Assembly: GCA_035438745.1 (NCBI GenBank)
Contig: DAORIX010000002.1
Span: 1,830 to 65,829 of the forward strand
Reading direction: 5' to 3'
From: Minisyncoccota bacterium
GTDB lineage: Bacteria > Patescibacteriota > Minisyncoccia > Phycocordibacterales > UBA6065
Length of the DNA stretch: 64,000 bases
In this document: positions 25,851 to 51,567 of the stretch, one piece after another
How positions within the stretch are numbered: the first letter of the stretch is position 1
How the letters are laid out: the number at the start of each line of letters is the position of its first letter
Translations under genes and position numbers: made by a program
Notes under the pieces: model-generated
What the model was told of the DNA's origin: nothing
What the model saw: only the letters and a program-made list of their open reading frames with translations
Database searches by the model: none

Positions 25851-25994
25851 TTGTGGGCTCAACATCTTGGACGATTTTCGAGCGATATTCTACAAGACTT
25901 CCGGTCGATAGATTGGCTTACTGAATACCCCTTCCCCACGCTCGCACTGGAACAAATAAAAAAATTGCTGGTTTAATTTATTAGCTTTGAATAA

Positions 25995-26312
25995 TTGATT
26001 CTTATCAAAATGAAAGGAGGCTACAGAAAAGGTGCTGGACGGAAGAAAGGCTTTGCTGCGTATGAGGCTGAAAAGGCCCGTGAATTCATCGTGCAAAGAC
26101 TTTCAGCTGATCTTGAGCCAATTATCGAAAAAGCCATCAAACAAGCCAGGAGGGGCGATAAACAGGCAAGAACATGGTTATTTGAGAGAGCTTACGGAAA
26201 GCCTAAAGAGACTGTTGATATGTCGATTAATAATCCGGTTCCCCTCTTAACTGATCCACAAAAAGAAAAGATTGCCAGACGGGTACTCATGAAGACTAAA
26301 AACATCAATTAG
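25995..26312 (+). CDS. Hypothetical basic DNA-binding-like protein (GRKKG-type motif), possibly mobile-element related
   Basis: 105 aa, basic N-terminus MKGGYRKGAGRKKGFAAYEAEKAREFIVQRL. No confident family assignment. Confidence 0.4.
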   Translation: MILIKMKGGYRKGAGRKKGFAAYEAEKAREFIVQRLSADLEPIIEKAIKQARRGDKQARTWLFERAYGKPKETVDMSINNPVPLLTDPQKEKIARRVLMKTKNIN

Positions 26313-26457
26313 ATTGCAAAGTGCAATTTAAGAATCTACCTTAACTACAGAAGCATGTTTTTATAAACCCCTACGCTTTGAACGTCTTCCTGAATAAACC
26401 CAAAGACCAATTCCGTATCGGAGTAAGCTTTACGAGCGTCGATCAGGGATATAAAAC

Positions 26458-26685
26458 CTACTTAATTAAAGCTAGGGCTATAAGTATTAAACTCAGCGCA
26501 AGTCCTACCGGTGCAAAAAGATACTTAGTTAATATCATAGTTTTCTCGATACCGAATATTTTCCTCCAAATATACGCTTTCGGACTTTCGGTTACATATT
26601 TTCTTGCAAACGTTTGATCAATGAAAAATCTTCCTGAAAAATACAAAGCTATGAAGCCAGTTATTATTAATACGATTTTTTCCAC
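26458..26685 (-). CDS. Small membrane protein (75 aa), uncertain
   Basis: Two hydrophobic helices. It overlaps an alternative plus-strand ORF (26378..26617). The strand choice follows the neighbouring operon direction. Confidence 0.3.
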   Translation of the reverse strand: MEKIVLIITGFIALYFSGRFFIDQTFARKYVTESPKAYIWRKIFGIEKTMILTKYLFAPVGLALSLILIALALIK

Positions 26686-26737
26686 GTTAATTATGCTTAT
26701 TTATAACATTTGATTATTCTACTTTCTTTTAGTATCT

Positions 26738-27172
26738 CTATAAATTAGGTATTTTCAATATTTCTCTTACCCCTTTCCATTCCGGATCCCTTTCCATCCT
26801 ATAATCAAATTCTCTAGCCTGAGACCCACTTTCGATAATCTTGTTGAGCGTTGAAGAAATTGTTTGAGGGTTTGTAACATAGAAGAACAAACTCCTTATG
26901 CCGTTATGTGTAAATCGTCCGGCACGATACACCTCATCAACAGCTTTAAATTTGTGATATAGGTCGTCCTCCATATCATTCAGAATCTTATCTTCCATAT
27001 TCGATATTGAACCATTCTCAGAAACAAGAAGTTGGATATTAATACATAAAAACCAAGAAAGTTTTTCTTTAAATTTAGCTTTTAAATACCCTTCTGTAAG
27101 AATGAGATTCCATGGCAAATTATCCTTTTCTCCCTGATAAAGTTTGAACACATCCTGTTCAGTTTTTTTCAT
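26738..27172 (-). CDS. Candidate immunity protein for the RHS C-terminal toxin
   Basis: 144-aa cytoplasmic protein. Its start overlaps the RHS stop codon (ATGA). Position and size fit RHS toxin-immunity pairs. No recognizable domain. Confidence 0.5.
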   Translation of the reverse strand: MKKTEQDVFKLYQGEKDNLPWNLILTEGYLKAKFKEKLSWFLCINIQLLVSENGSISNMEDKILNDMEDDLYHKFKAVDEVYRAGRFTHNGIRSLFFYVTNPQTISSTLNKIIESGSQAREFDYRMERDPEWKGVREILKIPNL

Positions 27173-27173
27173 A

Positions 27174-30100: not shown

Positions 30101-33100
30101 GCTCCGGACCGTGAATATTTTTCATCACAGAGAGATTATGTTCTATGACCTGCAATAGAGCCTCTCGAGGGTCTTCACGAAGGGTACGGACGTATTGTTT
30201 CTCCTCACCGGTAGATACATCTGTCTGCGTCCACTCTTGTCTAATGGTTCCACGCTCATCAGGCACAAGTATAGGAGGATTAAAGATGCGGAAACGCTCC
30301 ATGTCGACTGTACCATCAACACCAAACCCTATTCGTTTTCCTTTACTATCCCAAGCTCGAACAAAAACCTGAACACCACCCTCTATTGGCTCAACAGAAA
30401 CTATCTCAAATGTATAGTCCTTACGTTTCTCACGAACACCGCGAACAGCCTTTGCAATCTCCTCACCTTTAATGTTCGCACGTTTATAAGAACCCTTACC
30501 TTCAAGCAAAGCTCGGATCGAACCAGGCTCTGCAGGTGTAACGGAAAGTATTTTTTCAACAACTTTTGACTCAGTTCTCAAACGTGCTTCCGATGTACTA
30601 GCTGTGGTACTTGCTACCACAGGAACTATAAGAGGTTCAATTGGGACAATTGTTTTGTCATCAGAAACGACTTCATCTTGCGTCTCTACATCTGTTTCAA
30701 GTTCAGGTGGAGCGTCTTTAGGAATAAGCGCTTCCTCTGGAGTGACAGGCTCAGAAATCTCATTTGGAGAACTTTCATCAGAAGTTTTCTCTGTTTCTTG
30801 TGTAGAAACTTCGTCAGCAGAAACAGCGGGCTCGACTTGTGATGATTCAGGTGTTGGATTTGAAACATCTTCATTCGAAGGATTTTCTATCTCCTGAGCA
30901 TATACACTAGGAGCAAATAAAACTTGAGTAATTTCCTTGAGGCGTGATAATGCAAAATGAGACTTACTAGACGATTCACTTAGAGTCAAACCGCTTGTAT
31001 AAGTTGTGAGAATATTCACGAGGCGATACAGCGCATTAGAGTCATACGCATAATGTGTCTCGATACCATTAGCAAACTTTTTTGCCGCAAGTTTACCGTG
31101 TGGACCATAGTTAAGATCGGTGACGATCGGATTTCCTGCATGAGCAACAGAGTCGATTGTTCCAGCATTGTTATAGTTATAACCCTGAGTGACCCCGTTC
31201 GGAAGCGTAACCGTAAGCGGAGAGCCACGTCTATCGTAGGTATAACTCGTCGTATAAGTCTTATTCCCAATCTTTTTAGCTTCGCTATCAACATTACCTA
31301 AAATATCATAATCAAAAGTAGTCTGTGCAGAGGTACTCGACGCAACACAAAGACGACCGACTCCGTTGTCGCAACTATCATAGGTATATGTGTGCTCTGT
31401 GCCACTAGCTCCAGTATAATTTTCTGTGAGTTTGCGATTCAATGCGTCATAAGAATTTACTATGTTCTGAGCCTTAGGATCAGTACTAGATGCCAAATTT
31501 CCAAAAAGGTCATATGCATAGTTCCAAACCCCATAAGTGGAATCTCCTGATGCGTGTAGGTCTTGGGCGGTCGTGCGACGAGAAAGTCCATCATATGAGA
31601 ATGAACGAGTGTTACCAAGCGAATCGGTCATTCCCACTAAATTGTTGAGCGCATCGTGGGTATAACTCGTCGTATAGGTTTCTTCATCATTGTACTCAAC
31701 AACCGATGAAACATTACCGTAGGCATCTTTCTGTATGTCTTTTGGAACACCATTAGCGTCAGTTACCTTAACCTGCCAAGGGGTATACGCATACGTGGTG
31801 GTTCCAATAGATGTGGCAATCGATACAGGACGCTGCAAGGCATCATATGTGTAATTGGTATAAAGTGAAGATACATGAGTAGGAGAAGTACGCGCTGAAG
31901 TAGATGCAAAATACGGAAGGGACTCCTTCGCAAGTAAACCTGCACTACCGTAAACATAACTTTTAACTGAGTATCGATTGGTCATTTCTGCCTGAGAACG
32001 CTCCTGAATGACACGACCAAGACCATCACGATAAGTGTATACGTCTGTCGTGCTCGCGCTCGTTAAATATGTGCGAGTACGAGTGCTAGCTGGAAATGTA
32101 TCCGTATAAACATAATCTCGTAACACCTCAGTCAGAAGAGGGAATGAAGGATTAGTTTGGCGTTCCTCTTGTACTCGTCCAAGCGGTTCAAATACTGTTC
32201 TACGAACGGTACCGTTTTCATCTTCAACCCTTATTGGCTTGCCCACCATATAGTCATATTCATAATCAGTACCTTGGCTCAAAGCATTCGTAACAGTTTC
32301 TGGGTACAAATTAAATGAGTCATATGAATACGTCGTCGTATTGCTTCGGGGATCAGTCTCCGATGTGACTAATCCATATGAGTTATATGCTTTCGTCGTG
32401 CTTGAATAGTCACTTCCACTGATCCATTTTTCTTCTTTCGTTAAGTTGCCCTTGACCGCAGTACCAAGGGACTGAGTGTCGTAATACAAACGAGTAAGTG
32501 CAACAGATGTTCCTGAGTTGTCTTTGACCTCTTTCGTTGTAGGAAGAGTAAGATTTTTGCTTGTAGTTGCACTATAAGTAATAATCGTGGTACGTGTATC
32601 AGAACCAGTATTGCTATACGTTCCGTCAGACGATCCAGTCACTTCTCCCCTCTCAATTGACTGGAGAAGGTTGCCGGTTGTTGTTGAATAGGAGTATTCC
32701 GTCGCACGATCTTTGTGAGTTGATCCGCCTTCAAAATCCTGGACCGAGTCCGATGCAAGTCGTGTAAACCAATATGCGGGTGTAGGAGAAGATATAGTAC
32801 GACTTGGATTGAGCGCAATCACATTCTTGAGCATAGTTCCAGAGTTAGTACTCGAATATATGACGCTCTTCGCTCCAACGGCTCCGAGTCCCCCTCCGCT
32901 ATCCCAAGATTCTGTGTCTGAAGTCTGGATAAAAGCACCTGAGTTTACAGAATGGCTTCCTGCGGTTGATCCAAACACACCGACAAGCCATGCATTTGGA
33001 GTGTCGGTTGTGACTGTTGCTGTAACCGAAGTGCCTGAAATTCCACCCTCTGCATCGTACCAACCAAATGGATTTTCGGTATCAACACCTGAATACGAAA

Positions 33101-35873
33101 TTGCATGTGCTCCAAACCAGCCGTCTAACCCTCCTCGTGTCATCGTGAGGGTGTGAGTTCCCGTTGGAGGATTAAGTAAATACCACAAATTAACGTTTCG
33201 ATTGCTAGCCGCAGAAGCGCCAGCTCCAACCGGTGTCAGTGCAATACCATTATAAGTAACACCACTAACAAAGAGTCCGCCCTGAGAATCACCAATAACA
33301 AGGAGCATATTATCACTGCTACCTACCGTAAAACTATATGAATGAGACGAACCAGAAGCTACATTTGAAAACTGCGACGAGCCTCGAGCGATGTCAGTTG
33401 TACTGGTACTCGTCGTTGCACTTGTTATGTATTGGTCACTTGAATAAACATAGAATGATTTTTTGAGCGTTGTTGAGGCCATGCTCACAACATCTTCACG
33501 ATATTTTTTTCCAATGAGTGCAAATCCGTCAAGAAGCTCTCCTACGCTTGTCGAGGCCGTGTTGCCTTGATGGTAATAACTCTGTGTTGATCCGAGGCCA
33601 TCAAATCGATTGATTTTTGCAAACCCAGCAAATCGTCTATCTCTAGTGTTTGAAGGATTCAAATAAATTCTGCCACCCTCATACGTGTATGAGTAAGATT
33701 GTGAACCGCCAAAACCATCATTGTCTGTTAATTTTGTGACAACTAAAATTGAAAAAGGTAAGTCGGGATTCTGACTAGCCATTTGAGCCGAAAACTGATA
33801 TTCAATTTGAGTATTTCCTCCCGTACTTAAGCGACGGAATGTGAGCATGTCAGCCTTAGCTGTGCCACCCGAAGATACTGTGCTTTTTGTACTAGCGCTG
33901 TCGGGGATACCGTCTCCATTCCAATCAACGAGCTCGTTGTAATCTACACGTCCTGTCCATTGGCCTCCCGAAACCACCCCATTAAAGATATACTCTGGTA
34001 CCGTGAGAGATGATGTTGCGAATCCACCGCCCGTGTTTAGGTATACGTAATTGTAGCTTCCTGTTTGAATGTCTGTCACACCACTTGCCTTGGTTGAATA
34101 GGACGGCATATTGTATGACCTAATGTAGTCGAGGAGACCGTCACCATTCATATCTATGAATCGAATGCCTTTGTCCCAACCACCTGTCTGACGCACACCT
34201 GTGTTAATGGTCCATCTCGTATCAACAGAACCCCAACTAGATCCATTGTTAAGATAGAATTTGGTTGAACTTGCATCTGAGTACATCCAGTCGTCGAGGC
34301 CGTCTCCGTTAACGTCCACGAGTTGTGACATTGAAACGTCGGTTGCTGTGGTCGGCATTGCCGCAATAGGCGCAAAAGAACTTTTCACTCGCCAACCGTT
34401 CTCCAAACCACTATTGAGATAACTTCCATTAGCGGCACAGATTGTCGTTGTCGCCACATAATCAACAAGCCAGTCGCCGTTAAGATTTCCAAATAATCCC
34501 GTTGCAACACTCTCAGAACCATTCGCGCAACTAAAGAGTGGTAAACGAGATGGGGTTGCAGTGCTTGTCCAAGTGAAAGGAGCGGTGTTCTCGTAGTATC
34601 CTCGAGTAATAACACCACTTGAGTCACGATAGCTTCGTGCAATGTCTGCCTTACCATCCCCATTGAAATCAACGAGGCGGACACCGCGTTCTACGTATGG
34701 AAAATCATTTGATCCTCCGAGCCCAGAGTTGTCGTAGCTCCAAAATTCAGAAGAGACCGCCTGATTATATTGGGGAAAGTTGGGAAATTCATTCTCGTCT
34801 ACGATTCTGTGTGCGCTCGATGTTCCACTATTGCTCCAGAAGACTGCCTTATCAGGCAAACCATTACCATCCACATCGGCAACCATACGAGCACTGTTCC
34901 AAATCCGAGGATTGGTTGATGATGCGTATGTCGGTGTTGAAGTAGAGTATCCAAACGTAACAGCAGGCAAAGCGGCAGTATTACCGTCACTATCCCTTCC
35001 AGTTTCAATGGCTGAAATAAGAAGAGAGCGTGAACCATTGCTTCCACTTAAATAACCAAGAGTATACTTTCTTCTCCATTCATCATTTATGGATGCTTTT
35101 ACTTCTGTAAGACGCTTTGTTGTATTTACCCAAAATCCCGTTTCGTATGAAGTATAAACATCTGGACGTGTTTCGTAAGTGAAATCAACTTCAAATGGAC
35201 CGTCCGTTGTTCCGTTTCCGGTGTACGTAATTTTGGATGGGTAAATCTGATTACCGTCCTTTGTATATTCGAATTTTATGAAGTTGTCATTAGTATCTCG
35301 CACCTCCTCAAGCATCCAGCGATAAACATTATCAGGACTTGTCGTTGCCGACTGCCTAGACGCAGTGGTTGTACCGAAAGAGTATCGTGTGCCGCTTTTA
35401 TCAAATACGGTCCAAACGTTGTTTTGAAGACGGTAGGTAATAAAATTGCCATCCTCAAAGCGATGGCGATATCCTCCATTATTGTCCGATGGAACAAGTT
35501 CACCACCAAGAGATGAGGTAAAGTAGTTATCAATGTAGAGACGATCGGTTCCTATCTGATTCATGCGTGTGATAGACGGAATCGATAACTTCCAACCATA
35601 ACCATAAGGACTCTCACTTAAATCTTGACTGTTGTATGTAAGAGCAAGGTCTGGAGTAAGTCCCTTTCTTCCAGGTGGAACCTTAAACGAAATACTATCT
35701 GTGTATGCACCTTGATTTAAATCGACTCTCACTCTTCCAACACTAGCGCTAACAATATCTTCTCGCTCTTTTGCGTCCACAAGAGAGGGAGGAATAAGAC
35801 TGAGAACAAGATTACACAACACAAAAAGAACGATCGCTCGTCCACATCTGCGCAACGCTACAGTTGAGTACAT
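27174..35873 (-). CDS. Giant secreted RHS/YD-repeat polymorphic toxin, TcB-TcC (BC-fusion)-like
   Basis: 2899-aa uninterrupted ORF with a signal peptide and an SpvB/TcaC N-terminal motif (ISFKVPPGRKGLTPDLALTYNSQ). It has at least five FG-GAP-like calcium-binding repeats (VDVNGDGLPD, DFNGDGKAD, DVNGDGLDD, DMNGDGLLD, DWNGDGIPD). It has many YD repeats and a Glu/Pro/Ser-rich linker. It has a LamG/ConA-like jelly-roll (LTFSAWIKP ... ELWINGVSQG). The RHS core ends NPVTLKDPSGR at ~27723..27755. A unique 182-aa C-terminal domain follows. Confidence 0.85.
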   Translation of the reverse strand: MYSTVALRRCGRAIVLFVLCNLVLSLIPPSLVDAKEREDIVSASVGRVRVDLNQGAYTDSISFKVPPGRKGLTPDLALTYNSQDLSESPYGYGWKLSIPSITRMNQIGTDRLYIDNYFTSSLGGELVPSDNNGGYRHRFEDGNFITYRLQNNVWTVFDKSGTRYSFGTTTASRQSATTSPDNVYRWMLEEVRDTNDNFIKFEYTKDGNQIYPSKITYTGNGTTDGPFEVDFTYETRPDVYTSYETGFWVNTTKRLTEVKASINDEWRRKYTLGYLSGSNGSRSLLISAIETGRDSDGNTAALPAVTFGYSTSTPTYASSTNPRIWNSARMVADVDGNGLPDKAVFWSNSGTSSAHRIVDENEFPNFPQYNQAVSSEFWSYDNSGLGGSNDFPYVERGVRLVDFNGDGKADIARSYRDSSGVITRGYYENTAPFTWTSTATPSRLPLFSCANGSESVATGLFGNLNGDWLVDYVATTTICAANGSYLNSGLENGWRVKSSFAPIAAMPTTATDVSMSQLVDVNGDGLDDWMYSDASSTKFYLNNGSSWGSVDTRWTINTGVRQTGGWDKGIRFIDMNGDGLLDYIRSYNMPSYSTKASGVTDIQTGSYNYVYLNTGGGFATSSLTVPEYIFNGVVSGGQWTGRVDYNELVDWNGDGIPDSASTKSTVSSGGTAKADMLTFRRLSTGGNTQIEYQFSAQMASQNPDLPFSILVVTKLTDNDGFGGSQSYSYTYEGGRIYLNPSNTRDRRFAGFAKINRFDGLGSTQSYYHQGNTASTSVGELLDGFALIGKKYREDVVSMASTTLKKSFYVYSSDQYITSATTSTSTTDIARGSSQFSNVASGSSHSYSFTVGSSDNMLLVIGDSQGGLFVSGVTYNGIALTPVGAGASAASNRNVNLWYLLNPPTGTHTLTMTRGGLDGWFGAHAISYSGVDTENPFGWYDAEGGISGTSVTATVTTDTPNAWLVGVFGSTAGSHSVNSGAFIQTSDTESWDSGGGLGAVGAKSVIYSSTNSGTMLKNVIALNPSRTISSPTPAYWFTRLASDSVQDFEGGSTHKDRATEYSYSTTTGNLLQSIERGEVTGSSDGTYSNTGSDTRTTIITYSATTSKNLTLPTTKEVKDNSGTSVALTRLYYDTQSLGTAVKGNLTKEEKWISGSDYSSTTKAYNSYGLVTSETDPRSNTTTYSYDSFNLYPETVTNALSQGTDYEYDYMVGKPIRVEDENGTVRRTVFEPLGRVQEERQTNPSFPLLTEVLRDYVYTDTFPASTRTRTYLTSASTTDVYTYRDGLGRVIQERSQAEMTNRYSVKSYVYGSAGLLAKESLPYFASTSARTSPTHVSSLYTNYTYDALQRPVSIATSIGTTTYAYTPWQVKVTDANGVPKDIQKDAYGNVSSVVEYNDEETYTTSYTHDALNNLVGMTDSLGNTRSFSYDGLSRRTTAQDLHASGDSTYGVWNYAYDLFGNLASSTDPKAQNIVNSYDALNRKLTENYTGASGTEHTYTYDSCDNGVGRLCVASSTSAQTTFDYDILGNVDSEAKKIGNKTYTTSYTYDRRGSPLTVTLPNGVTQGYNYNNAGTIDSVAHAGNPIVTDLNYGPHGKLAAKKFANGIETHYAYDSNALYRLVNILTTYTSGLTLSESSSKSHFALSRLKEITQVLFAPSVYAQEIENPSNEDVSNPTPESSQVEPAVSADEVSTQETEKTSDESSPNEISEPVTPEEALIPKDAPPELETDVETQDEVVSDDKTIVPIEPLIVPVVASTTASTSEARLRTESKVVEKILSVTPAEPGSIRALLEGKGSYKRANIKGEEIAKAVRGVREKRKDYTFEIVSVEPIEGGVQVFVRAWDSKGKRIGFGVDGTVDMERFRIFNPPILVPDERGTIRQEWTQTDVSTGEEKQYVRTLREDPREALLQVIEHNLSVMKNIHGPERIIKGKKGKTVSTFYSAAGQASPVDGMAYWNGSGDWASAHDSNGVISCDTCAGGEVGIRVADYYFQNLVRNIFGFNTSLIDSDMILSATLSVTMHSGMGGGTNPGDFKVVVDKHDGPASSNAIVNNDYNIANWDSVRQSNTEIAINTISTRQYYNFPFNSTGLGNINKSGNTWLGLRIGLDLDNTSPGWRDHRSYNAETVFADTTGTTEDPKLVIEHTGLPPIEDPFPNANGTRLQDILYYYDSVGNITSIIEAATSSLARKVNYAYDDLSRLVSASTTATSSVSFRELYSYNKIGNLKEKILSNQVEDNFRSTDLELSSSQFWSIADASQTGLDMSTVLTFSAWIKPESFDNGTIQTLVHKGDASQESYKLYMYNAGGTHMMFFRPSSSGAYEETLAWTLGSTIPTGAWTHVVFTWTGSGSVGELWINGVSQGTQTGSVTSLYNSARKLAIGAMLETDSVSTYYVDGLMDDVRIWSRKLTSTEIGNFYSDPYNFSNGSSLQGWWKLDSNGQDSSGNANHLTNNNGATFSTDVAVSQSAPSSLYLYSGSGYLNPHAPSEYFDGTASTTYTYDNNGNLTSSIFSSATTTYTWDFLNRLVSATTTGTTTAYTYDHTMARMSETVGSKVHHYPNKFYSAEYTDSTYQTGTSTSYIWAGDTLIAYVERPIVSGSPSGTAKTYYVHPDHLESTNVVTNEAGDVILEKDYMPYGSMRVEDGTDSNRGFIGQFENEGNNLSYLNARYYEGARGQFLSQDPVFWEVGLTNDGMGVLTSPQLQNSYAYAGDNPVTLKDPSGRIIDTIADIGFIAYDLYRVGEAMATGGDVRTELNYLSLDVAGAVIPGVTGVGVVARTTKVVNKVDNVAEKSFEIYAKMKDDIIYTGRTSGKSIPEKNVIKRDRTHHMNEQGYGPARLIHSTNSYNTVRGLEQIGQDVANSVGRSGNAIRGISPSNKNAANYLNISQKEVETFVNNFKRITGIK

Positions 35874-36011
35874 AAAAAATAGAGATTAAAAAATATAAAC
35901 TCAATTCACCCTACGTTCAACACTAAAACTATACCACTTGAGCTTATAAGAAGCATAAGGGTTTATCCACCTCATATACTTTCATCATTTAACGAAGCCC
36001 AGTTTGGTTAT

Positions 36012-36401
36012 TTAAAGTGCGGTATAAAAGCCTGAAGGAGTAGATACGTAGCTTGGTATCTGGAAGCGTACTTTATCTAAGGTATATCTCACCCTGTTGA
36101 ACCGAATAATCTCACCAGAAGTTTCCGCCACACAATAATCATCCAGCGTAAAATTTTGATAAATCACGTTAAGGTTTTCAGACGTTGCTATTGAATGTCC
36201 GGAATTTGCATTAGGAATACGAGTATTATTTTCAGACACAAATGCAAGAAAAATGGTTGTTCGTGCTTGTAAAACAAGTTCTGATTCGTTTGGGGTAAGA
36301 GGCTGGAAGTTATTATTTGAAAATTGCACAACTCCAATACCATGAACATTTCCATGATGAGTAACTTGTGTGGCAAAAATCCTCTCGATCTTTTTTCTCA
36401 A
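36012..36401 (-). CDS. Hypothetical protein (129 aa)
   Basis: ORF of reasonable length in an AT-rich accessory region. No recognizable motif. Confidence 0.4.
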   Translation of the reverse strand: MRKKIERIFATQVTHHGNVHGIGVVQFSNNNFQPLTPNESELVLQARTTIFLAFVSENNTRIPNANSGHSIATSENLNVIYQNFTLDDYCVAETSGEIIRFNRVRYTLDKVRFQIPSYVSTPSGFYTAL

Positions 36402-36490
36402 AATTGGGTCTTTTATGTGAACATCTTCACACGTATCCCCTAACTACATAATCAGATGAATAAATACTAGCATTTGTTACACTACTAGAC

Positions 36491-37252
36491 ATGCTTGCTT
36501 TCATAGATGAGACTGGGGACCATAATTTAAACATGAAGACTGTTGATAATAACTACAATATTTTTGTATTGTCTCTGGTTCTCATTAGAAAAAAGGACTA
36601 TAAGAAGATAGACATGGGGTTTAAAAAGATAAAAAAAGATATATTTGGAGACGAGAACTTTATAATCCACACATGGGAATTAACACATCCAACGCACAGG
36701 AAATCAGACAAACGTAATGGAATAATGCGTGTCCATGAAAAAAGAGAAGAATTTTATAAAAAAATGAATGACTTTATCGAGTCGTCGTTAATAAAGACGT
36801 GCTTCACGGTAGTTAGAAAACTACATTTTGCTGGTAAATATGTATTTCCGTCGGATCCATATGAATTATCTTTTGAAAATCACCTAAACAGAATTTTACA
36901 CTACTCTAGTGGTGATGATATAAGTATTTATGCGGAATCTAGAGATGATGCTTTGGATAAGAGTCTTTTAGCAGAATATACTAAATATTCAATTAAAGGG
37001 GTATGTTTCCACGACTCAGAAAAAATGAAGAGAATAAAGGAATTCAATATAAAAAGCAAAAAAGAAAATATCACAGGACTTCAGATAGCAGATTTACTAG
37101 CAAGTCCAGTAGCAAGACATTTTTTAAATATTAAACCTAGACCAATAGGAAACGAAATACCTTATTCATTAGTAAGAAAAAAACTAGCAGGAAATATAAA
37201 GTTATCCATAACAATTATTCCAGATGATGCAGAGATTAACCTATTGAAATGA
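36491..37252 (+). CDS. DUF3800-family protein
   Basis: 253 aa. The N-terminal FIDETGD and later GLQIADLLA resemble the conserved IDESG and LQxAD motifs of DUF3800. Confidence 0.55.
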   Translation: MLAFIDETGDHNLNMKTVDNNYNIFVLSLVLIRKKDYKKIDMGFKKIKKDIFGDENFIIHTWELTHPTHRKSDKRNGIMRVHEKREEFYKKMNDFIESSLIKTCFTVVRKLHFAGKYVFPSDPYELSFENHLNRILHYSSGDDISIYAESRDDALDKSLLAEYTKYSIKGVCFHDSEKMKRIKEFNIKSKKENITGLQIADLLASPVARHFLNIKPRPIGNEIPYSLVRKKLAGNIKLSITIIPDDAEINLLK

Positions 37253-37605
37253 GAAGAGCGCCCCACAAAGGCGGTGCGCTCTTCTACTACATAAATGGTA
37301 TCATAAGGTATCTAATCCAGATAACTAGTTATCCCCTTAAAATATGGCTACAAACGAAGACAAATTTCTCTCTACTTTACTAGGTGCTTTATTGCCTGTT
37401 TCAAGATAGATACAAAAGTTTTCTTATTCATTCGCTTTACTTTAATTACTTTAGTATAACTATACCAGTATTAATAAAAACTCTTCTAAAACTGCCTACA
37501 GCGGTTTTTATTTTTCCTCTAATTATACTCATGAAGGGAGACGTGTGTATGTGCAGTCCCTAACAAAAAATATTTTTGTTAATCTTTTATTGAAATCATA
37601 TACAC

Positions 37606-38271
37606 TTACATCTGAATGAGCTCTAACTGTAACTTTGCTTTTAAAACCTCAAACTCTGCAATCTTTTTATCTAAAAGAACTTGAGGGGGTCTGATTGTAG
37701 GTGATTTCTGCCAATTTTCATTACAAGAAGATGGATTACTAGTGCATATTTCTTTATCGTAATCGCCCGCACGGACCCTACTGATTTCAAGATCCATGCT
37801 CGCAATTGCGGCAAGCGTTGCCTTTTTCTGCGCCTCAGCTTGGGTTAAAGACGCCTCCAACTGTTTGATCCTTGCCTGTAGCTTTTCTAAATCAATAAGA
37901 CATTGATTTGGTGTTCCTTGGAGTTCTTTAATCTTTAATTTAAGAGAGTTATTTTCATCAATTACTGATTGGTCCGGCTTAATTACAATCTTTTCAACAA
38001 TCCGGTCCACTGGCACTGTAACTGTTTTGATTACCGCCCTTTCGATAACCGTTGATTCCGGTACTATCACAGAAGATGAAGTAGCGGTTGTTTCAGGAAC
38101 TTCATTATGTTCATTAACACTTCTCTTAAGATCACCTGCATCAACCCTAAGCTCTGGAATATTTTTTATTTCGTTTTGCACAAACCAAGTACGTGGATTC
38201 CACCATTCTGCATGAACAATAGACGGAAGGAGAATCGCCCCCAGAGATAGCACTATTATTTTATTTTTCAT
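37606..38271 (-). CDS. Secreted coiled-coil protein
   Basis: 221 aa with a signal peptide, a Val/Ile/Pro-rich repeat region and a long coiled coil (LKLKIKELQ ... LEASLTQAEAQKKATLAAIASMDLEISRVRAG). Confidence 0.55.
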   Translation of the reverse strand: MKNKIIVLSLGAILLPSIVHAEWWNPRTWFVQNEIKNIPELRVDAGDLKRSVNEHNEVPETTATSSSVIVPESTVIERAVIKTVTVPVDRIVEKIVIKPDQSVIDENNSLKLKIKELQGTPNQCLIDLEKLQARIKQLEASLTQAEAQKKATLAAIASMDLEISRVRAGDYDKEICTSNPSSCNENWQKSPTIRPPQVLLDKKIAEFEVLKAKLQLELIQM

Positions 38272-38635
38272 AGTAAAAGTTTTAATAAACCTTACCTGTG
38301 TATTGCATACAAAAAACCTGCCACAGGTAGAGGCCTAAGCCTCTCATACCGGTTTCCCGATATGGCGAGTTAAGCGACCCTATGACAGGCTCTTTATGCT
38401 TAACTCGACTTCTGACCATGCCACTGATGACTCAGTAGTTTAGGTACTTTTTCATATTCAATTGTCTCCTTCACTCTACCATCACTTCCCTCAAATACAA
38501 AAGAGTTTAAAAAAATGGGAGGGGGGGCAAAAATGCTAGCAAATGCAATCATGAAAATGATAGCATTTCGAAAACTTATTAGCCCACCTAAACTTACTTA
38601 AAAATATATGTATAATTGACCCATACAGAGCTGAA

Positions 38636-39346
38636 ATGAAACCTCAAGAAAGAGCTGATTATGAGATATGGTGGGTACTACAAGAGATTAAAAAAGAGTG
38701 TTTGATTTTAAGATCAGACCATTTTGTTGTTAGAAAAGACACGCCTTTTGAAATAACTCATACCCATACAGACACGGCCCCCACACATAAAACACAAACA
38801 AAGATTTTATATAGACTTCATGAACTAGGGACAGTTATTATTGACGTATTGCCTATAGGTGTCGAAACAGAGATCGTCTTTGTCGATGGTATCCCTTCTT
38901 TAGCGAAAAAAGAAAAACAATCATACAATCCTGAATTATCGATAAAGGTAATTCAACCAAAGTTTGAACAAACATATAGTGAGTATGCAGGTTTATTGTC
39001 AACAACTGTAGATAATAAAAGTTTAAAAGGTAGAAAAATCATATATGATGAGACAAAGCAAATTATTTTTATCGATGCAATACCCTGTCCGCTCGTGCCC
39101 TCACGTAACGAAAGCGATCTTGCAAAAGTAATGTTTAAAAAAGAGATTGGACAATTTGTAGACTGGTCAATCCTCTACGAAGAAATAACTGGTATCGAAG
39201 CTCTAGGAACAGATAAAAAAAATCAGAAAAGACAAAAAATGCTTAGGGATACCAAAGATAGATTAAACAAACATATAAAACATGTGGCTAACACCGAAGA
39301 CAATCTTTTAAGTTGGAAAAATAAAAGTATTTCGAGAAACTACTAA
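38636..39346 (+). CDS. Hypothetical protein (236 aa)
   Basis: AT-rich ORF inside the putative element. No recognizable domain. Confidence 0.5.
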   Translation: MKPQERADYEIWWVLQEIKKECLILRSDHFVVRKDTPFEITHTHTDTAPTHKTQTKILYRLHELGTVIIDVLPIGVETEIVFVDGIPSLAKKEKQSYNPELSIKVIQPKFEQTYSEYAGLLSTTVDNKSLKGRKIIYDETKQIIFIDAIPCPLVPSRNESDLAKVMFKKEIGQFVDWSILYEEITGIEALGTDKKNQKRQKMLRDTKDRLNKHIKHVANTEDNLLSWKNKSISRNY

Positions 39347-39437
39347 CAACAATCAGAAGTGATTCGCAGGTGAGTCACCACTCACACTGCTAAAGTCGAG
39401 GCACGAAAGCTTCGGCTTTTGTTTTAGTTAGTTATTT

Positions 39438-39617
39438 ATGTCAGAAAAACAAATCAAAACAAATGTCGAAAAAGACTGCCAGATTATAGAGCTATTAGAG
39501 TTCTTTGAACTTTTAGCGCGGTTTGATTATGAGGATAAACAAAAATCAGAAGCCAAGACAGACTCTTTAGAATCAGCTCCTAAAGAGTCTGTCTTGGGGT
39601 CGGATATAAAAAAATAA
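39438..39617 (+). CDS. Small acidic protein (59 aa), not in the ORF track; contains a 15-bp perfect inverted repeat in its 3' end
   Basis: ATG at 39438 and TAA at 39615. Translates to MSEKQIKTNVEKDCQIIELLEFFELLARFDYEDKQKSEAKTDSLESAPKESVLGSDIKK. Ends 11 nt before the next gene. Confidence 0.3.
   Translation: MSEKQIKTNVEKDCQIIELLEFFELLARFDYEDKQKSEAKTDSLESAPKESVLGSDIKK
39555..39595. repeat. Perfect 15-bp inverted repeat aagacagactcttta(N11)taaagagtctgtctt
   Basis: Read directly from the sequence. Candidate protein-binding site (recombinase or regulator) or RNA hairpin. Confidence 0.6.
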
Positions 39618-39628
39618 TTACAATAATC

Positions 39629-40135
39629 ATGGCAAAAAAAAGAATAATTAACACTCGGTTCTGGGTAGATGAATACATATCAAGGCTCGATCCTATAGAA
39701 AAACTGCTATTTCTATATTTTTTAACAAATCCCTCTACAGAGATATGTGGAATATATGAAATACCCTTGAAAACTGTCGCCACCGATACCGGTATCGACA
39801 AAGATATGGTAGAAAAAATAATTAAAAGGTTTAGTAAAGATAATAAAATTTACTACAAGAAAGGTTGGATTGCGATAAAAAATTTTACGAAGCACCAAAC
39901 CCTAAATCCAAGCGTAAAGACAGGAATAGGAATATGTGTTTCTAAGGCCCCTAAATTCATGTTAAAGAAGGTCAATCTGCCCCCAGACTGTGTACACTCT
40001 CCAGGCAACATCACGCATGTTAATCCAAACCCAAATCCTAAAAATAAATCTAAAATGGACACAGACACCAAGCGTCATTTAATACTTAGAAAAGAAATTG
40101 ATGAAATAGTTAACCAAAAAAGAACAATTCCTTAA
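39629..40135 (+). CDS. Winged-helix DNA-binding protein, phage replisome-organizer/DnaD-N-terminal-like (tentative)
   Basis: 168 aa. The N-terminus (RFWVDEYISRLDPIEKLLFLYFLTNPSTEICGIYEIPLKTVATDTGIDKDMVEKIIKRF) resembles phage replication-initiation / DnaD-like winged-helix domains. Confidence 0.45.
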   Translation: MAKKRIINTRFWVDEYISRLDPIEKLLFLYFLTNPSTEICGIYEIPLKTVATDTGIDKDMVEKIIKRFSKDNKIYYKKGWIAIKNFTKHQTLNPSVKTGIGICVSKAPKFMLKKVNLPPDCVHSPGNITHVNPNPNPKNKSKMDTDTKRHLILRKEIDEIVNQKRTIP

Positions 40136-40156
40136 ATATTTGATAAAATTACATCA

Positions 40157-41761
40157 ATGAGAAATAAAGCTATTACTTATTGTAGAGTATCCTCTAAAGA
40201 ACAAGAAGAAACTGGTTATTCTCTTGATGCTCAAGAAAAACTATTAAAAGAGTATGCTGAAAAAAAAGAATGTGAGGTCACTAAGGTGTTTCGTATCTCT
40301 GAATCCGCAAGTGGAAAACAAATCAGGAAAACATTTAACGAAATGCTCGCTTACATGGAGAAAAACCACGTACCTGTTTTACTCTGTGAAAAAATAGATC
40401 GCCTTACCAGAAACCTAAAGGATGCCGCGACTGTCAGTGACTGGTTACAAGCTGATCCTATACGAGAAATTCACTTTGTTAAAGAAAACTTTGTAGTAAA
40501 CAAAAATACTCGTGCTCATGAAAATCTTGTTTGGGACATGAAGGTTGCCATTGCGCGCTTCTATACAAACAATCTATCAGAAGAGGTTAAAAAGGGGCAA
40601 GCAGAGAAAATTTCACAAGGCGGCCTCCCTACTAAACCACCTATTGGATACAAGACTATTGGAGAAAAAGGCCACAAGGTCCATGTTTTAGATCCGGACA
40701 AAGCACCTTTTGTAAAAAGAATGTTTGATCTTTACGCTACTGGGAACTACTCAATGACCAGCCTCAGAGAAGAGTTACATACGGAGGGTTTTCGAATGAG
40801 ATCCGGAAAAAAGGTTATGAAAAGTAAATTTGAGCAAATGCTTAAAGACCCTTTCTATTACGGTGCTTTGAGATGGAATGATGTCATATATCACAATGGA
40901 ACACATGAACCGATTATCTCAAAAGAAACGTTTGATAAAGTTCAAGATATAAGAACAAAGAAAAAAGCACCTAGTTACTCAAGACATTCTTTTCAGTTTA
41001 GAAAGATGTTCAAGTGTGGAGAATGTGGTGGAAGCGTCACCGCTGAAATACAAAAAAACATCGTCTATTACCATTGTAATCATTATCGACCTTGCTCTCA
41101 AAAGAAATACACTCCTGAGGAAAAGCTTGAAGAGAAATTATTTGGTGTATTCAAGTTTTTTGAAACCATTACAGTAGAAGAAGCAGAAGAAATAAAGGCC
41201 AAAATCAAGCTAAACCACTGCCAGGAAATCGAATATAAGGAAAACACCATTAAAGCCCTGAACGAACGGTATAACACGCTACAAAGACGGTTAGACAACC
41301 TTTATAACGACAAGCTCGATGAGAAAATCACACGCGAGTTCTGGGAAAAGAAGCAAGCTGAAATAACAAATGAGCAAAAAGCTATTCAGGACCAGCTTTC
41401 TCGCCTCAAAGGCGAAGAAGCGAAGTATTTTGAAATCTGGCTCAACATCCTAGATCTCGCTCGTCGAGCCGGCGAGATCTACAAGAAACGATCACCAGAG
41501 GAGAGGCGTTTACTTTTGAGTCATATTTTTTCGAACCTGGTCCTAAAAGACGAAACAGTGACTCCTACTCTCAAAGCTCCAGTCCAGAAACTTGCTGAAC
41601 GTGTCCAACAACGACTAGACGCCGAAAAGACTTTCGAACCAGATAAAAACGGCTCTATAAAAACACAAAAAGGTGCTCTCGCACCCCTTGTGTCCAACTA
41701 TGCTCCGGGAGAAGGGATCGAACCTTCGACCAATCGCTTACGCTTACCCTCTCATTACTGA
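40157..41761 (+). CDS. Large serine recombinase (resolvase catalytic domain, recombinase domain, zinc ribbon and coiled coil)
   Basis: 534 aa with N-terminal ITYCRVSSKEQEETGYSLDAQ (catalytic Ser). It has a recombinase domain, a zinc ribbon (CGECGGS ... YYHCNHYRPC) and a C-terminal coiled coil. The last ~20 codons overlap the tRNA-Asn 3' exon on the opposite strand. Confidence 0.85.
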   Translation: MRNKAITYCRVSSKEQEETGYSLDAQEKLLKEYAEKKECEVTKVFRISESASGKQIRKTFNEMLAYMEKNHVPVLLCEKIDRLTRNLKDAATVSDWLQADPIREIHFVKENFVVNKNTRAHENLVWDMKVAIARFYTNNLSEEVKKGQAEKISQGGLPTKPPIGYKTIGEKGHKVHVLDPDKAPFVKRMFDLYATGNYSMTSLREELHTEGFRMRSGKKVMKSKFEQMLKDPFYYGALRWNDVIYHNGTHEPIISKETFDKVQDIRTKKKAPSYSRHSFQFRKMFKCGECGGSVTAEIQKNIVYYHCNHYRPCSQKKYTPEEKLEEKLFGVFKFFETITVEEAEEIKAKIKLNHCQEIEYKENTIKALNERYNTLQRRLDNLYNDKLDEKITREFWEKKQAEITNEQKAIQDQLSRLKGEEAKYFEIWLNILDLARRAGEIYKKRSPEERRLLLSHIFSNLVLKDETVTPTLKAPVQKLAERVQQRLDAEKTFEPDKNGSIKTQKGALAPLVSNYAPGEGIEPSTNRLRLPSHY

Positions 41762-42319
41762 AAGGAGCGGACTATATCATTCTCGTGATCCACCTCTGGA
41801 CCTTACGAGACGAGGGGCTTCCCATCTGCCCCGTGGCAGACAGTACTCCTAAAAAGGATAGTCTCTACACCCTCCCTTCAACCTCACTCAAGATTTACTT
41901 TGAGTTTTCGTCAAAGGGCTCGGCTCGGGATTGCCCACACATGTGGGGTTCCCCGAATTCACCTCGTTTTCGACCAAGCTTTCACTTGGAAGCTGCATGA
42001 TGCCCGCACCAACCTCTCTGTGGCAATTCGCGCACAAAAGAATACATTTATCGAGCTCTGCTTTTACCTTATCCCATGAACGCGTATAACCCTTATCACC
42101 AATCCCGAATCCTTTTTCTTCTTTTTTGATATGGTGAAGTTCTAACGCGCCTTGATATTTATTGTATCCACAGATCTGACATTTGCCTCCTTTGTACTCA
42201 ATAGCCAAAGATTTGATTTTTTTGCGTCTTTTAGAAACCGCACGAATCAAAGCTTCGCGTCGATCGGCATATTTTCTTCTGTCTGGCATTACTTTAATAA
42301 TACCACCAGAAAATCGTTT
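41741..42319 (-). mobile_element. Group I intron (~579 nt) carrying an HNH homing-endonuclease ORF
   Basis: The 3' part of the intron contains the paired P7-type elements AGAGACUA ... GAUAUAGUCCGCUCC. These are close to the Tetrahymena CAGACUA ... AUAUAGUCGGACC core. The intron ends in G before the 3' exon and follows an exon U. Confidence 0.7.
41888..42289 (-). CDS. HNH homing endonuclease encoded within the group I intron
   Basis: 133 aa with HNH motifs CQICGYNKYQGALELHHI ... LLCANCHR. Confidence 0.8.
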   Translation of the reverse strand: MPDRRKYADRREALIRAVSKRRKKIKSLAIEYKGGKCQICGYNKYQGALELHHIKKEEKGFGIGDKGYTRSWDKVKAELDKCILLCANCHREVGAGIMQLPSESLVENEVNSGNPTCVGNPEPSPLTKTQSKS

Positions 42320-42536
42320 ACAGGCGACTGCTCTACCGCTGAGCTATCCCGGAATGTTTTATGTGCTCTATCTGGCTATCAGTTTACTCATAGCCAGAAC
42401 AAAACCTTAAAACACAGAGTACTAAACTTATGAATCCTACGCCTCCTTCCGAGCTTCTACCTATACATAACCGGAATGTTCTGTATCATAGCAAATTATA
42501 GACATGAAGCAATAAAGCCACCGCCCTACCCTCACC

Positions 42537-49377: not shown

Positions 49378-51567
49378 CTACCTACCCAATCTATAGAGCT
49401 GTTTTGCTTCGTCGACAGAGAGCACTCTGTTATATACGCGAACTTCATCAATAGCTCCATCAAATGTTCGTGCAGTATCAGCACGATTACCTATAACCAA
49501 ATCGAGAGAAGCATCGGATCCGGCAGAATCAGTAGCGCCAGCAACAACAGTATGGTACGAAATTTCGACACCGTTCCTATAAATACGTGATCCTGAGTTG
49601 TTATAGCCGGTAGATCCATCCCATGTAACCATAAAATGTTGCCACTCGCCTATAGTAAAACTATTACTTGCACCGCAACGTCCCGCTCTCGCGGTAGCAG
49701 TAGAACCTACTTTTATAAAATATATAGCATTTGTAAGACTTGCTTCTCCAGCGAGACAACCAGCACCTGTAACTAAAGTAATCTGCCATTGGCCAGCAAC
49801 ACCAATATTTCCATTCTTTGCTACCACACGAGATTGATTACCCTCACCTGCAGAATTTGGTTTAATCCAAAAACTAACACTCATAGGAATGAGGTCGTCG
49901 AGAGAACTCGCTGAACCAGCATTCACAATATCGTCCACCGCATCAAAACGTAGTGCCTGACCTGATTTTCCTGGAACAGGAGATGTGGTGGTACTCATAC
50001 TTGTAATCACCGCGTTACTGTTACGACCAGAACGATCGTATGCGATATTATTCGCCCAACTGATGTCAGAACCATTAAATGACCAGTATCCCACGAGACC
50101 GTCAGTAAATCTATTTTGTTGTGATGAGTTAATAGCGGTCTGATTTTGATTGTAGAGTGCCTGTACTTCACTATCAGAAAGTGCCCTACTGTACACGCGC
50201 ACATCGTCTATTTTTCCAGGGAAAAATCGTCCTGGAGTACCACTGATATACGCTCCTCCAATAGCAGCATTGGCTGAAGAACTCTGTGCACCCACAGCTT
50301 TTACAGCACTTGCCACCAATACACCATCGACATATAACACCCAAGATGTCCCATTATAAAGTCCGACAACATGATGCCATGTGTTTATCGGAAAATTAAT
50401 ATTCCAAGAAGTACCGTAGTCGATCGAGGGACCGAAAGTCAGAACCTCCAACTTTGCGGGACTGCCACTATAGCGTAAAACGTATGCTTCTCGAGTACCA
50501 TCAAATCCCTTCTCCATAATTATACCGCAGTAGTTAGCGCAACCATTATTGTTCGATGGAAAAGAACTAAAATTGACCCACGCAGACAATGTTATTTGTC
50601 CCGTAATATTAAGCGCAGACGGATTACCGAGAGCGATAAAGTCATCTGTACCGTCAAAATCCAAAGCCTTGCCTTTCTTTCCTCCTACCCAATCAGTGTG
50701 TGGAGCCATGTTGGTGAGAGTTCCATGAAGGCTATTACCAGAAAAATCATGAGCGATAGTAGAAGTACCTTCGTCAAAAGACCAGTGTCCGACAAGTCCT
50801 CTGTTTGAAACAACCTTACGAGTCACCTGACCGTTTGAGTAGAGTGCCTGAATTTCATTGAGAGATAGAGCTCTGTTATAAATACGCACGTCGTCTATTT
50901 GAGCACTGACATACCCGTCATCACCAGTACCCACTCCAGCTCCGATAGCAACCGCTCCTCCGTTGTTCATACTTCCCATACTCGCACCCGACGTTGCAAC
51001 AAGAACTCCATCATAATAAAGGAGTGCATTAGAGCCGTTTGAAACACCGACAATGTGGACCCATTTGCCTGTTTGAGGAAAAGGTCCGATAGCCCACTGG
51101 TTTTCAGCACCTCCCTGCCTACCAAAACGCATACCAGTACCAACATGAGACCAAAAGGCATATGAGCCAGAAGCTTTCGACAAAAGATCGCCGTCATCCC
51201 ATACAGAATCTTTGACCCACATAGAAATAGTCACTGTGCTCGAAATGTTGAGCCGGCCTTGAGAATCAGTCACAGAAACATACTCATTTACACCATCAAA
51301 ATCGAGTGCCTTTCCCCTTTTACCGTTTATCCAGTCGGTTGCCTCCATGTTGTTGAGGTTTCCGTTTTGACCAAAACCAGAAAAATCATGAGCAATAGTC
51401 CCAGCACTTTCATCAAAAGACCAGTAACCCACAAGACCGAGGTTTGATGGCGGTTTAGAGAAAGTTCCAGCATGAAGAGGTAAAACCATCAACAAGTAAC
51501 TTGCCACAACAAAACCAAATACAAAGGTAAATCGAATTTTTTTGCTATGTAGTAGTGAGGAAAACAT
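49378..51567 (-). CDS. Secreted protein with three LamG/ConA-like lectin-fold repeats
   Basis: 729 aa with a signal peptide. It has three repeats of GLVGYWSFDE..GT.A.D.SG...G...NM....DW..GK.GKAL.FDG.DD.V........W.H.V......LY.DGV.......IDDVR.YNRALS..E...LY. Confidence 0.7.
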   Translation of the reverse strand: MFSSLLHSKKIRFTFVFGFVVASYLLMVLPLHAGTFSKPPSNLGLVGYWSFDESAGTIAHDFSGFGQNGNLNNMEATDWINGKRGKALDFDGVNEYVSVTDSQGRLNISSTVTISMWVKDSVWDDGDLLSKASGSYAFWSHVGTGMRFGRQGGAENQWAIGPFPQTGKWVHIVGVSNGSNALLYYDGVLVATSGASMGSMNNGGAVAIGAGVGTGDDGYVSAQIDDVRIYNRALSLNEIQALYSNGQVTRKVVSNRGLVGHWSFDEGTSTIAHDFSGNSLHGTLTNMAPHTDWVGGKKGKALDFDGTDDFIALGNPSALNITGQITLSAWVNFSSFPSNNNGCANYCGIIMEKGFDGTREAYVLRYSGSPAKLEVLTFGPSIDYGTSWNINFPINTWHHVVGLYNGTSWVLYVDGVLVASAVKAVGAQSSSANAAIGGAYISGTPGRFFPGKIDDVRVYSRALSDSEVQALYNQNQTAINSSQQNRFTDGLVGYWSFNGSDISWANNIAYDRSGRNSNAVITSMSTTTSPVPGKSGQALRFDAVDDIVNAGSASSLDDLIPMSVSFWIKPNSAGEGNQSRVVAKNGNIGVAGQWQITLVTGAGCLAGEASLTNAIYFIKVGSTATARAGRCGASNSFTIGEWQHFMVTWDGSTGYNNSGSRIYRNGVEISYHTVVAGATDSAGSDASLDLVIGNRADTARTFDGAIDEVRVYNRVLSVDEAKQLYRLGR

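Follow-up and report, generated by a model that had tools for sequence, protein, structure and literature searches.

Group I introns in the anticodon loops of Patescibacteria tRNAs have been described in a survey of 95 complete genomes (Nakagawa, Amikura, Omae, and Suzuki, mSystems 2026, PMC13011429; preprint 10.1101/2025.07.03.662931, July 2025). Introns between anticodon positions 35 and 36 (35/36) are known in tRNA-Asn(GUU) as well as in tRNA-Asp(GUC) of this phylum, and tRNA-Asn(GUU) with a 35/36 group I intron accounts for 15 of the 22 intron-containing tRNA genes found, the interrupted tRNA-Asn usually being the sole copy in its genome (PMC13011429). Nearly all of these introns were classed in subgroup IA, 81% of bacterial tRNA introns being IC, and four of the tRNA-Asn introns carry HNH genes (PF01844). 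The tRNA-Asn intron of GCA_016700035.1 was shown to self-splice precisely at 35/36 in vitro, and a change of its terminal G to C abolished splicing/exon ligation (PMC13011429). The stretch of DNA described here (64 kb of contig DAORIX010000002.1, assembly GCA_035438745.1; hereafter, the window) very probably contains a functional Paceibacteria tRNA-Asn(GUU) gene of this kind, split at U35/U36 by an IA-type group I intron in which an HNH homing-endonuclease gene is embedded. This reading draws on the two exon halves, a covarying ribozyme core, an invariant guide sequence and terminal G, an HNH domain, purifying selection on the encoded protein, and the existence of intron-less alleles.

The window locus is a further member of the published, experimentally supported intron class, having in common with it the phylum, the tRNA, the 35/36 site, and the IA-type core; as both the intron type and its splicing were reported in 2025-26, the locus is another example and not a discovery. 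Its core aligns end to end and helix by helix with the GCA_016700035.1 intron, with 69% identity over the aligned positions and with every invariant column in common (GCAGC, AGAGACUA, GAUAUAGUCC, and the terminal G). An initial sequence-only reading of the window had called such an intron uncommon, a view that does not hold: the 35/36 intron of tRNA-Asn is the commonest tRNA intron in Patescibacteria, a search with the window HNH protein gave 3,279 homologues with E <= 0.001 (below 1e-49 for each of the best 120), and the HNH gene lies inside a tRNA-Asn 35/36 intron, as in the window, at 23 of 30 species-level loci encoding HNH relatives. HNH-bearing introns are thus far commoner in metagenomes than the four from complete genomes imply. 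The window does differ from the published introns in several respects. Its open reading frame (ORF) is 133 aa long, compared with about 104-117 aa, a stop codon in helix P3 having been lost; the encoded protein starts with MPDRRKYADRRE, compared with MPDTRTYADRRE in the published HNH intron protein of GCA_016699425.1; and its tRNA doubles as the attachment site of a serine-integrase island of 15.8 kb. Among the sequences compared from the supplementary table of PMC13011429, the locus does not occur. What it adds is one well-resolved example, in which the guide sequence, the core helices, the position of the ORF, and a likely internal promoter have been mapped.

The split gene consists of the following parts:

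42353..42320, minus strand: 5' exon of tRNA-Asn(GUU), 34 nt, TCCGGGATAGCTCAGCGGTAGAGCAGTCGCCTGT, tRNA nucleotides 1-35, ending in CUGU (sequence and ARAGORN).
41741..42319, minus strand: group I intron, 579 nt, subgroup IA-like, at anticodon 35/36 (RF00028, covariation, and alignment to the spliced intron).
41740..41703, minus strand: 3' exon of tRNA-Asn, 38 nt, TAAGCGATTGGTCGAAGGTTCGATCCCTTCTCCCGGAG, from U36 to discriminator G73 (sequence and ARAGORN).

The exon halves were found, on reading the sequence, to lie 579 nt apart on the minus strand, exactly where the sequence-only reading had placed them, with U35, the last base of the 5' exon, forming the 5' splice-site U. Joined, the exons give 72 nt that ARAGORN folds into a canonical cloverleaf with the perfect 7-bp acceptor stem and the anticodon loop CUGUUAA of the original proposal. 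The same program run with long introns allowed, as that proposal had recommended, returns tRNA-Asn(gtt) interrupted at position 35 by a 579-nt intron, in agreement with the claimed insertion between positions 35 and 36; with default settings it calls no tRNA anywhere in the window. CCA is absent from the encoded 3' exon, and G73 is present in all loci compared. A discriminator G73 is typical of tRNA-Asn. Default tRNA finders miss both this gene and the published intron-bearing tRNA genes of Patescibacteria, so that the genome would seem to lack tRNA-Asn and would score as incomplete, an annotation problem also raised by Nakagawa et al. (2026; PMC13011429). The sequence-only reading had taken splicing to be essential because the window has no other tRNA-Asn, a conclusion that 64 kb of sequence do not support. 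Since published interrupted genes are usually sole copies, it is plausible, by analogy, that this gene is the only tRNA-Asn of its genome.

The identity of the tRNA deserves comment, as ARAGORN labels 11 related loci Thr(tgt), or 13 when two labelled Thr(agt) are included, with the intron at 33 or 34, and the same ambiguity has been reported for the published introns (PMC13011429). A tRNA-Thr(UGU), whose intron would lie at 33/34, two bases further upstream, nevertheless has a vanishingly small chance of being the correct description. ARAGORN itself calls Asn(gtt) for the window; the window intron ends in GUAAGCG, so that splicing at 33/34 would fail to restore an anticodon loop of 7 nt; the sequenced spliced product of a homologue shows 35/36 (PMC13011429); intron-less genes identical to the Asn reading exist; and the G73 common to all loci also speaks for tRNA-Asn.

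That the intervening sequence is a group I intron was examined by Rfam search and by comparison with its relatives. RF00028 matches 42020..41748 on the minus strand over the full length of the model (positions 1-253) with 51.7 bits (E = 3e-10; gathering score, 50 bits), and this is the only group I match in the window. For the comparison, tRNA-Asn exons were placed in 28 of the 30 species-level loci; 27 homologous intron cores were aligned with MAFFT, and a wider comparison covered 32 introns, including the spliced one. Common to the alignment are an invariant GCAGC, then P2, P7 (strands AGAGACUA and GAUAUAGUCC), and a guanosine as the last base. The P7 pair quoted in the sequence-only reading corresponds to these two strands, which are nearly invariant in the 32 introns. 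The elements of the ribozyme, all on the minus strand, are as follows:

41992..41996, minus strand: internal guide sequence GCAGC, invariant in the 32 aligned introns including the spliced one.
41974..41989, minus strand: P2 hairpin, CCAAGU-GAAA-GCUUGG, five of six pairs with 7-15 double compensatory changes (27 sequences).
41962..41967, minus strand: P3 5' strand, ACGAGG, pairing with CCUCGU at 41810..41815 and forming a pseudoknot with P7.
41925..41956, minus strand: P4-P5 domain, UCGGGG / CCCAC-AUGU-GUGGG / UCCCGA, 96.9% of cells paired, also in the single-sequence fold.
41869..41924, minus strand: P6 / P6a / P6b extended arm, P6 and P6a covarying, P6b from the single-sequence fold.
41859..41863, minus strand: P7 5' strand, GACUA (in AGAGACUA), pairing with 41770..41774, 100% paired and nearly invariant.
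41822..41858, minus strand: P7.1 (UCC-UUUUUA-GGA) and P7.2 (9-bp hairpin), between P7 and P3', both in the fold.
41810..41815, minus strand: P3 3' strand, CCUCGU (covariation).
41782..41809, minus strand: P8 hairpin, four of five outer pairs compensatory (the MAFFT alignment being imperfect here), also in the fold.
41770..41774, minus strand: P7 3' strand, UAGUC (in GAUAUAGUCC; RNAalifold and hand-drawn structure).
41747..41766, minus strand: P9 hairpin with a GUAA tetraloop, all eight pairs changing on both sides, in 1-12 sequences per pair.
41741, minus strand: terminal guanosine (omega-G), G in all 32 aligned introns.

RNAalifold on the 27 introns recovered P2, P4, P5, P6, P7, and P9, with double compensatory changes at 27 of 34 pairs. 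When these helices were supplemented by hand with the P3 pseudoknot, P7.1, and P8, 85.6% of cells were paired, compared with 32-48% when partners were slid by 1-3 columns, and 38 of 48 pairs changed on both sides, values reached in none of 500 shuffles. Four of the six P3 pairs change on both sides, five of the six P4 pairs are compensatory, and P7.1 covaries in the 17 sequences carrying it; the outermost pairs of P2 (unpaired in 16 of 27) and P9 (unpaired in 19 of 27) are poorly supported or often open. The single-sequence fold of the window intron gives the same helices (z = -4.84). A P3-P9 core with a P3/P7 pseudoknot and compensatory changes is therefore present, and the group I call of the sequence-only reading, including the P3-P7-P8 core that it had asked to see folded, stands. 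Because the P7.1/P7.2 hairpins, a hallmark of subgroup IA, stand between P7 and P3', and in line with the published IA assignment of Patescibacteria tRNA introns, the intron is taken to be IA-like.

P1 is formed by pairing of the guide GCAG (41996..41993) with exon CUGU (42323..42320; C32-U35), giving four base pairs with a U.G wobble at the splice site. In ORF-less relatives the same GCAGC lies 5-9 nt past the splice site, whereas in the window 323 nt separate the two, indicating that the endonuclease gene occupies the P1 loop. Two other assignments near the splice sites were discarded. A hairpin near the 5' end of the intron (UCUGG...CCAGA with ACAG), considered as P1, would place U-A and not U.G at the splice site, and the ORF-less relatives also rule it out, the true guide being the invariant GCAGC before P2. 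The repeat UAAGCG/UAAGCG at the 3' splice site is not a duplication but a semi-conserved motif of the intron end (UAAGUG in relatives).

Several observations on the RNA weigh against a functional split gene. The RF00028 score exceeds the cut-off by just 1.7 bits, relatives scoring 56-96; P1 has just 4 bp in the window, with a C-C mismatch at exon position -5, and gives no covariation signal because both of its strands are invariant; a search for pairing of UAAGCG in the 3' exon with bases on the 5' side of the guide gave no convincing P10; and the window covers 64 kb of the genome, so that a second, uninterrupted tRNA-Asn could lie beyond it. The score, the short P1, and the lack of a P10 would also be expected of a decaying relic that no longer splices or splices poorly, its tRNA-Asn being a pseudogene whose work is done by another tRNA-Asn; such a gene would lie in the rest of the genome, the window containing no other tRNA, and uninterrupted tRNA-Asn genes of identical sequence do occur in metagenomes. 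Decay is nonetheless very improbable. All core helices are intact, and no position that is invariant in the 32-sequence alignment has changed in the window. The tRNA and intron (41703..42353) differ at 0-1 of 579 nt among seven sibling contigs, and the flanks at about 3%, the opposite of decay; this near-identity could be due to gene conversion in the recent past or to strong constraint. In the published survey, genomes with the interrupted gene usually have no other tRNA-Asn (PMC13011429), and the identical intron-less alleles belong to organisms with proteins just 50-65% identical to those of the window and lie in other gene neighbourhoods.

The intron-less alleles also bear on the mobility of the intron. 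An exact-match scan found at least 120 intron-less metagenome tRNA-Asn genes that match the spliced 39-nt sequence from the D arm to the variable loop, and among the matches listed, nine are uninterrupted 72-nt genes identical to the window tRNA over its entire mature length. Empty target sites therefore exist, and the presence or absence of the intron in otherwise identical tRNAs lends indirect support to homing, as does the position of the HNH gene inside an intron of a mobile type. No synteny was detected at the DNA level between the window and the loci of the intron-less alleles, distant protein-level matches lying elsewhere in the window, and no same-species empty site was found among the intron-less alleles of the identical tRNA.

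The gene carried by the intron and its putative promoter are as follows:

42289..41888, minus strand: HNH homing-endonuclease ORF, 133 aa (CQICGY...HH...CANCH), in the P1 loop (ORF list; Pfam PF01844).
42297..42305, minus strand: TGGTATTAT, extended -10-like box with its end 7 nt ahead of the ATG of the HNH ORF, putative promoter.

The complete HNH nuclease ORF noted in the sequence-only reading is borne out by a PF01844 match of 26.5 bits (cut-off, 21.4) and by retention of the full CxxC...HH...N...CxxCH motif in the translation. An NCBI entry from a metagenome-assembled genome of Candidatus Paceibacterota has the identical protein, which was found on 21 contigs. An NCBIfam search gave no specific family, and in a PDB sequence search there were weak matches only, with McrA and with proteins of group II introns in their HNH (En) domains. 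Synonymous differences between the window and its relatives are saturated (pS 0.77-0.92) with low nonsynonymous differences (pN 0.12-0.28), and closer pairs of homologues have dN/dS values of 0.03-0.11, which points to strong purifying selection on the HNH protein.

Gene and ribozyme overlap. The last approximately 36 codons of the ORF coincide with the guide and with P2-P6b; of these C-terminal codons, ...ATG CAG CTT CCA... also act as the guide and the P2 5' strand; nearly all HNH-bearing introns read GCAGCUUCC here, and the ORF-less ones vary after GCAGC. Most HNH relatives are 103-118 aa long, their stop codon being a UGA inside the P3 5' strand (AAAUGAGG). The window has ACGAGG in its place, so the frame continues through P3-P6b and the ORF reaches 133 aa.

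Expression of the gene probably starts within the intron, from a promoter giving a leaderless or near-leaderless HNH mRNA, as suggested by the position of the TGGTATTAT box and by the finding that 13 of 22 intronic homologues (L007-L032) have a perfect TATAAT- or TATACT-like box 6-11 nt upstream of the start codon, its first base lying 12-17 nt ahead of the ATG. A generic sigma-70 scan did not call the box, which has no -35 element, and supported no tRNA promoter either. No mention of an intron-internal promoter, or of free-standing HNH homologues, was found in the main text of PMC13011429.

By analogy with other intron-encoded endonucleases, the HNH product most likely cuts intron-less tRNA-Asn near 35/36. 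The points that tell against this part of the reading are that the target is assumed from the position of the gene and the general behaviour of homing endonucleases, that the internal promoter is a pattern match, not called by the generic scan, and that the ORF of the window carries a ribozyme-derived C-terminal tail of 25-30 codons, which could impair the protein or the folding of the RNA. An active ribozyme whose HNH protein is no longer a homing endonuclease, being unexpressed, or else maturase-like, nicking other DNA, or acting in defence, would fit the abnormal C-terminal extension, the absence of an NCBIfam family and the weak structural matches, and also purifying selection across deeply diverged lineages, which is unlike the classic gain-decay-loss cycle of a selfish endonuclease. 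Such a change of role is considered unlikely, however, as the full catalytic and zinc-binding motif is kept, intron-less target alleles are abundant enough for homing to continue, and free-standing relatives lie beside tRNA-Asn in bacteria and in phage tRNA arrays, a setting typical of active homing endonucleases. HNH intron proteins are not known to act as maturases.

A mobile group I intron in tRNA-Asn would operate as follows. The tRNA-Asn precursor would be transcribed as one RNA, in which the guide would pair with C32-U35 to form P1 with its U.G wobble; an external guanosine would attack after U35, the terminal G (41741) would then enter the G-binding site in P7, and exon ligation would restore the anticodon loop CUGUUAA. 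The HNH gene (beta-beta-alpha-metal, zinc-finger type), held in the 323-nt P1 loop and probably transcribed from its own extended -10 box, would give a product that cuts intron-less tRNA-Asn near 35/36, repair then copying the intron and its gene into the break (homing). Confidence in the ribozyme steps is high, by homology to the validated GCA_016700035.1 intron, from which splicing in the source organism is also inferred; confidence in the function and expression of the endonuclease, judged from sequence features, is moderate.

Phage T4 introns td, nrdB, and sunY belong to subgroup IA2 and have intron-encoded endonucleases, including the HNH enzyme I-TevIII; their ORFs are expressed from promoters inside the intron, not from the precursor. 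They share with the window intron an IA-type core and an endonuclease ORF placed in the loop of a peripheral helix, but they interrupt protein-coding genes and hold their ORFs in P6 or P9.1 loops, whereas that of the window lies in P1. The T4 HNH proteins are not close relatives of the window protein, the PDB sequence search giving no significant match. A second parallel is the tRNA-fMet intron of Synechocystis PCC 6803, also an anticodon-loop group I intron with its own homing endonuclease, I-SspI, which is aimed at the anticodon region of intron-less tRNA-fMet (Bonocora and Shub, 2001, as cited in PMC3984707). It differs from the window intron in its tRNA, its site (33/34), its endonuclease family (PD-(D/E)XK, PF11645), its cyanobacterial host, and, according to the PMC13011429 survey, its subgroup. 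The introns of Azoarcus tRNA-Ile and Anabaena/Nostoc tRNA-Leu(UAA) differ in being IC3, without P7.1/P7.2 and without an ORF, and in lying at 34/35 or 36/37.

Free-standing endonucleases are known to cooperate with ORF-less introns in collaborative homing, as in the cases of T4 mobE and cyanophage F-CphI (PMC2790892; PMC6083498; PMC3984707). A matching layout is seen at five metagenome loci (L019:1477-2082, L022:1501-2147, L023:1477-2088, L024:1477-2115, and L025:240-849), where the next gene downstream of a free-standing HNH gene, starting about 25 nt past its end, is a tRNA-Asn with an ORF-less 35/36 intron of 174-214 nt (RF00028, 61-77 bits). The stop codon of the HNH gene overlaps TTGATATAAT, which is likely to be the promoter of the tRNA. 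In the window, by contrast, the endonuclease lies inside the intron, and the free-standing form has been seen only in other species. More distant HNH relatives (35-65% identity) were found on 17 IMG/VR viral contigs (L037-L053), mostly free-standing in phage tRNA gene clusters, examples being:

L037:1265-1746: viral HNH gene.
L042:1501-1798: viral HNH gene.
L047:1346-1761: viral HNH gene.

Four of the 17 viral genes lie within approximately 340 nt of an intron-less tRNA-Asn gene; four of the 17 loci show no tRNA at all, and none of the 17 shows a group I match. It is possible, though doubtful, that the HNH family moves among three states, namely free-standing in phage tRNA arrays next to intron-less tRNA-Asn genes, free-standing just upstream of a bacterial tRNA-Asn with an ORF-less intron, and, as in the window, inside the P1 loop with a promoter of its own and with C-terminal codons that are also guide and P2. 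Were the three states linked by descent, they would be a natural series showing how a mobile intron arises when a passive ribozyme joins with a free-standing endonuclease, and the free-standing relatives could record how that intron was assembled. If true, this might also explain the persistence of the 35/36 intron in reduced genomes of the candidate phyla radiation (CPR), where the intron would shield the sole tRNA-Asn from a phage-borne nuclease that targets tRNA.

Among the other HNH relatives, one is followed by a group I match (L026:1920-2259), one adjoins a group II intron domain match (L035:1859-1959), and one has no RNA match (L036). The record titles of L011 and L022-L024 read 'uncultured Gammaproteobacteria', and those of others name Elusimicrobia or Chloroflexota; either these bins are mislabelled or the intron has spread beyond the CPR.

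The 3' end of the same tRNA-Asn is occupied by a second mobile element, with the following features:

25861..41701, strand not assigned: integrated island of 15.8 kb, inserted where tRNA-Asn has its 3' end (blastn comparison of the window with L001-L006; junction sequences).
40157..41761, plus strand: large serine recombinase with Resolvase, Recombinase, and Zn_ribbon_recom domains (Pfam; NCBIfam XisF/Ccr-like models below cut-offs).
41668..41689, minus strand: terminator-like hairpin and U-run, 14 nt past the tRNA, belonging to the island (terminator scan).
38329..38446, minus strand: LOOT RNA (Rfam RF03000, 87 bits against 46.4), on the island between hypothetical genes.
27174..35873, minus strand: 2,899-aa SpvB / FG-GAP / RHS-repeat / Laminin_G_3 protein, polymorphic-toxin-like, island cargo.
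26738..27172, minus strand: DUF695 protein following the 2,899-aa protein, island cargo.

The island is absent from six sibling contigs (L001-L006), in which the tRNA adjoins the sequence that in the window begins at 25860 and runs towards lower positions; without the insertion, the site consists of TCCCGGAGC directly followed by CCATAAAG, and the core GAGC is present at both junctions. Three recombinase domains encoded at the edge of the insertion, a short common core, and absence from relatives are together those of an element moved by a large serine recombinase. The sequence-only reading had rightly seen such an element next to the tRNA, and the recombinase gene abuts and indeed overlaps the 3' exon: in the integrated form, its last 20 codons are antisense to the 3' exon and the end of the intron. 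In the circular form, as translated from the inferred join, the ORF would have 531 aa and a different C-terminus, ending 17 codons into the other end of the island. Since the junction falls within this ORF, attP is situated in the 3' end of the gene for the recombinase. The island thus uses the 3' end of tRNA-Asn as its attachment site and leaves the tRNA undamaged; comparison of the junctions places the native tRNA terminator now at about 25810..25850, its place having been taken by that of the island. One 72-nt gene therefore hosts two unrelated mobile elements, an intron in its anticodon loop and a 15.8-kb serine-integrase island at its 3' end.

With respect to the cargo, the DUF695 protein may be the immunity partner of the 2,899-aa protein, and a DUF3800 protein is also encoded on the island, the G+C content of which is lower (0.34-0.36) at 36-40 kb. 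A literature search of main texts found no usable discussion of LOOT RNA.

The genes flanking the tRNA and island are chromosomal and encode penicillin-binding proteins, PriA, a histidine kinase, and surface proteins with CAP and Laminin_G domains. These neighbours, together with the identity of the HNH protein to the Candidatus Paceibacterota entry, establish the window as part of a CPR/Patescibacteria (Paceibacteria) chromosome. Further along the minus strand lie a 3,163-aa ORF (54337..63828) with weak matches only, to YadA-head and Peptidase_S74, and two paralogous proteins of 720-730 aa with triple Laminin_G_3 domains (49378..51567 and 51614..53779), all three being large surface proteins typical of CPR genomes.

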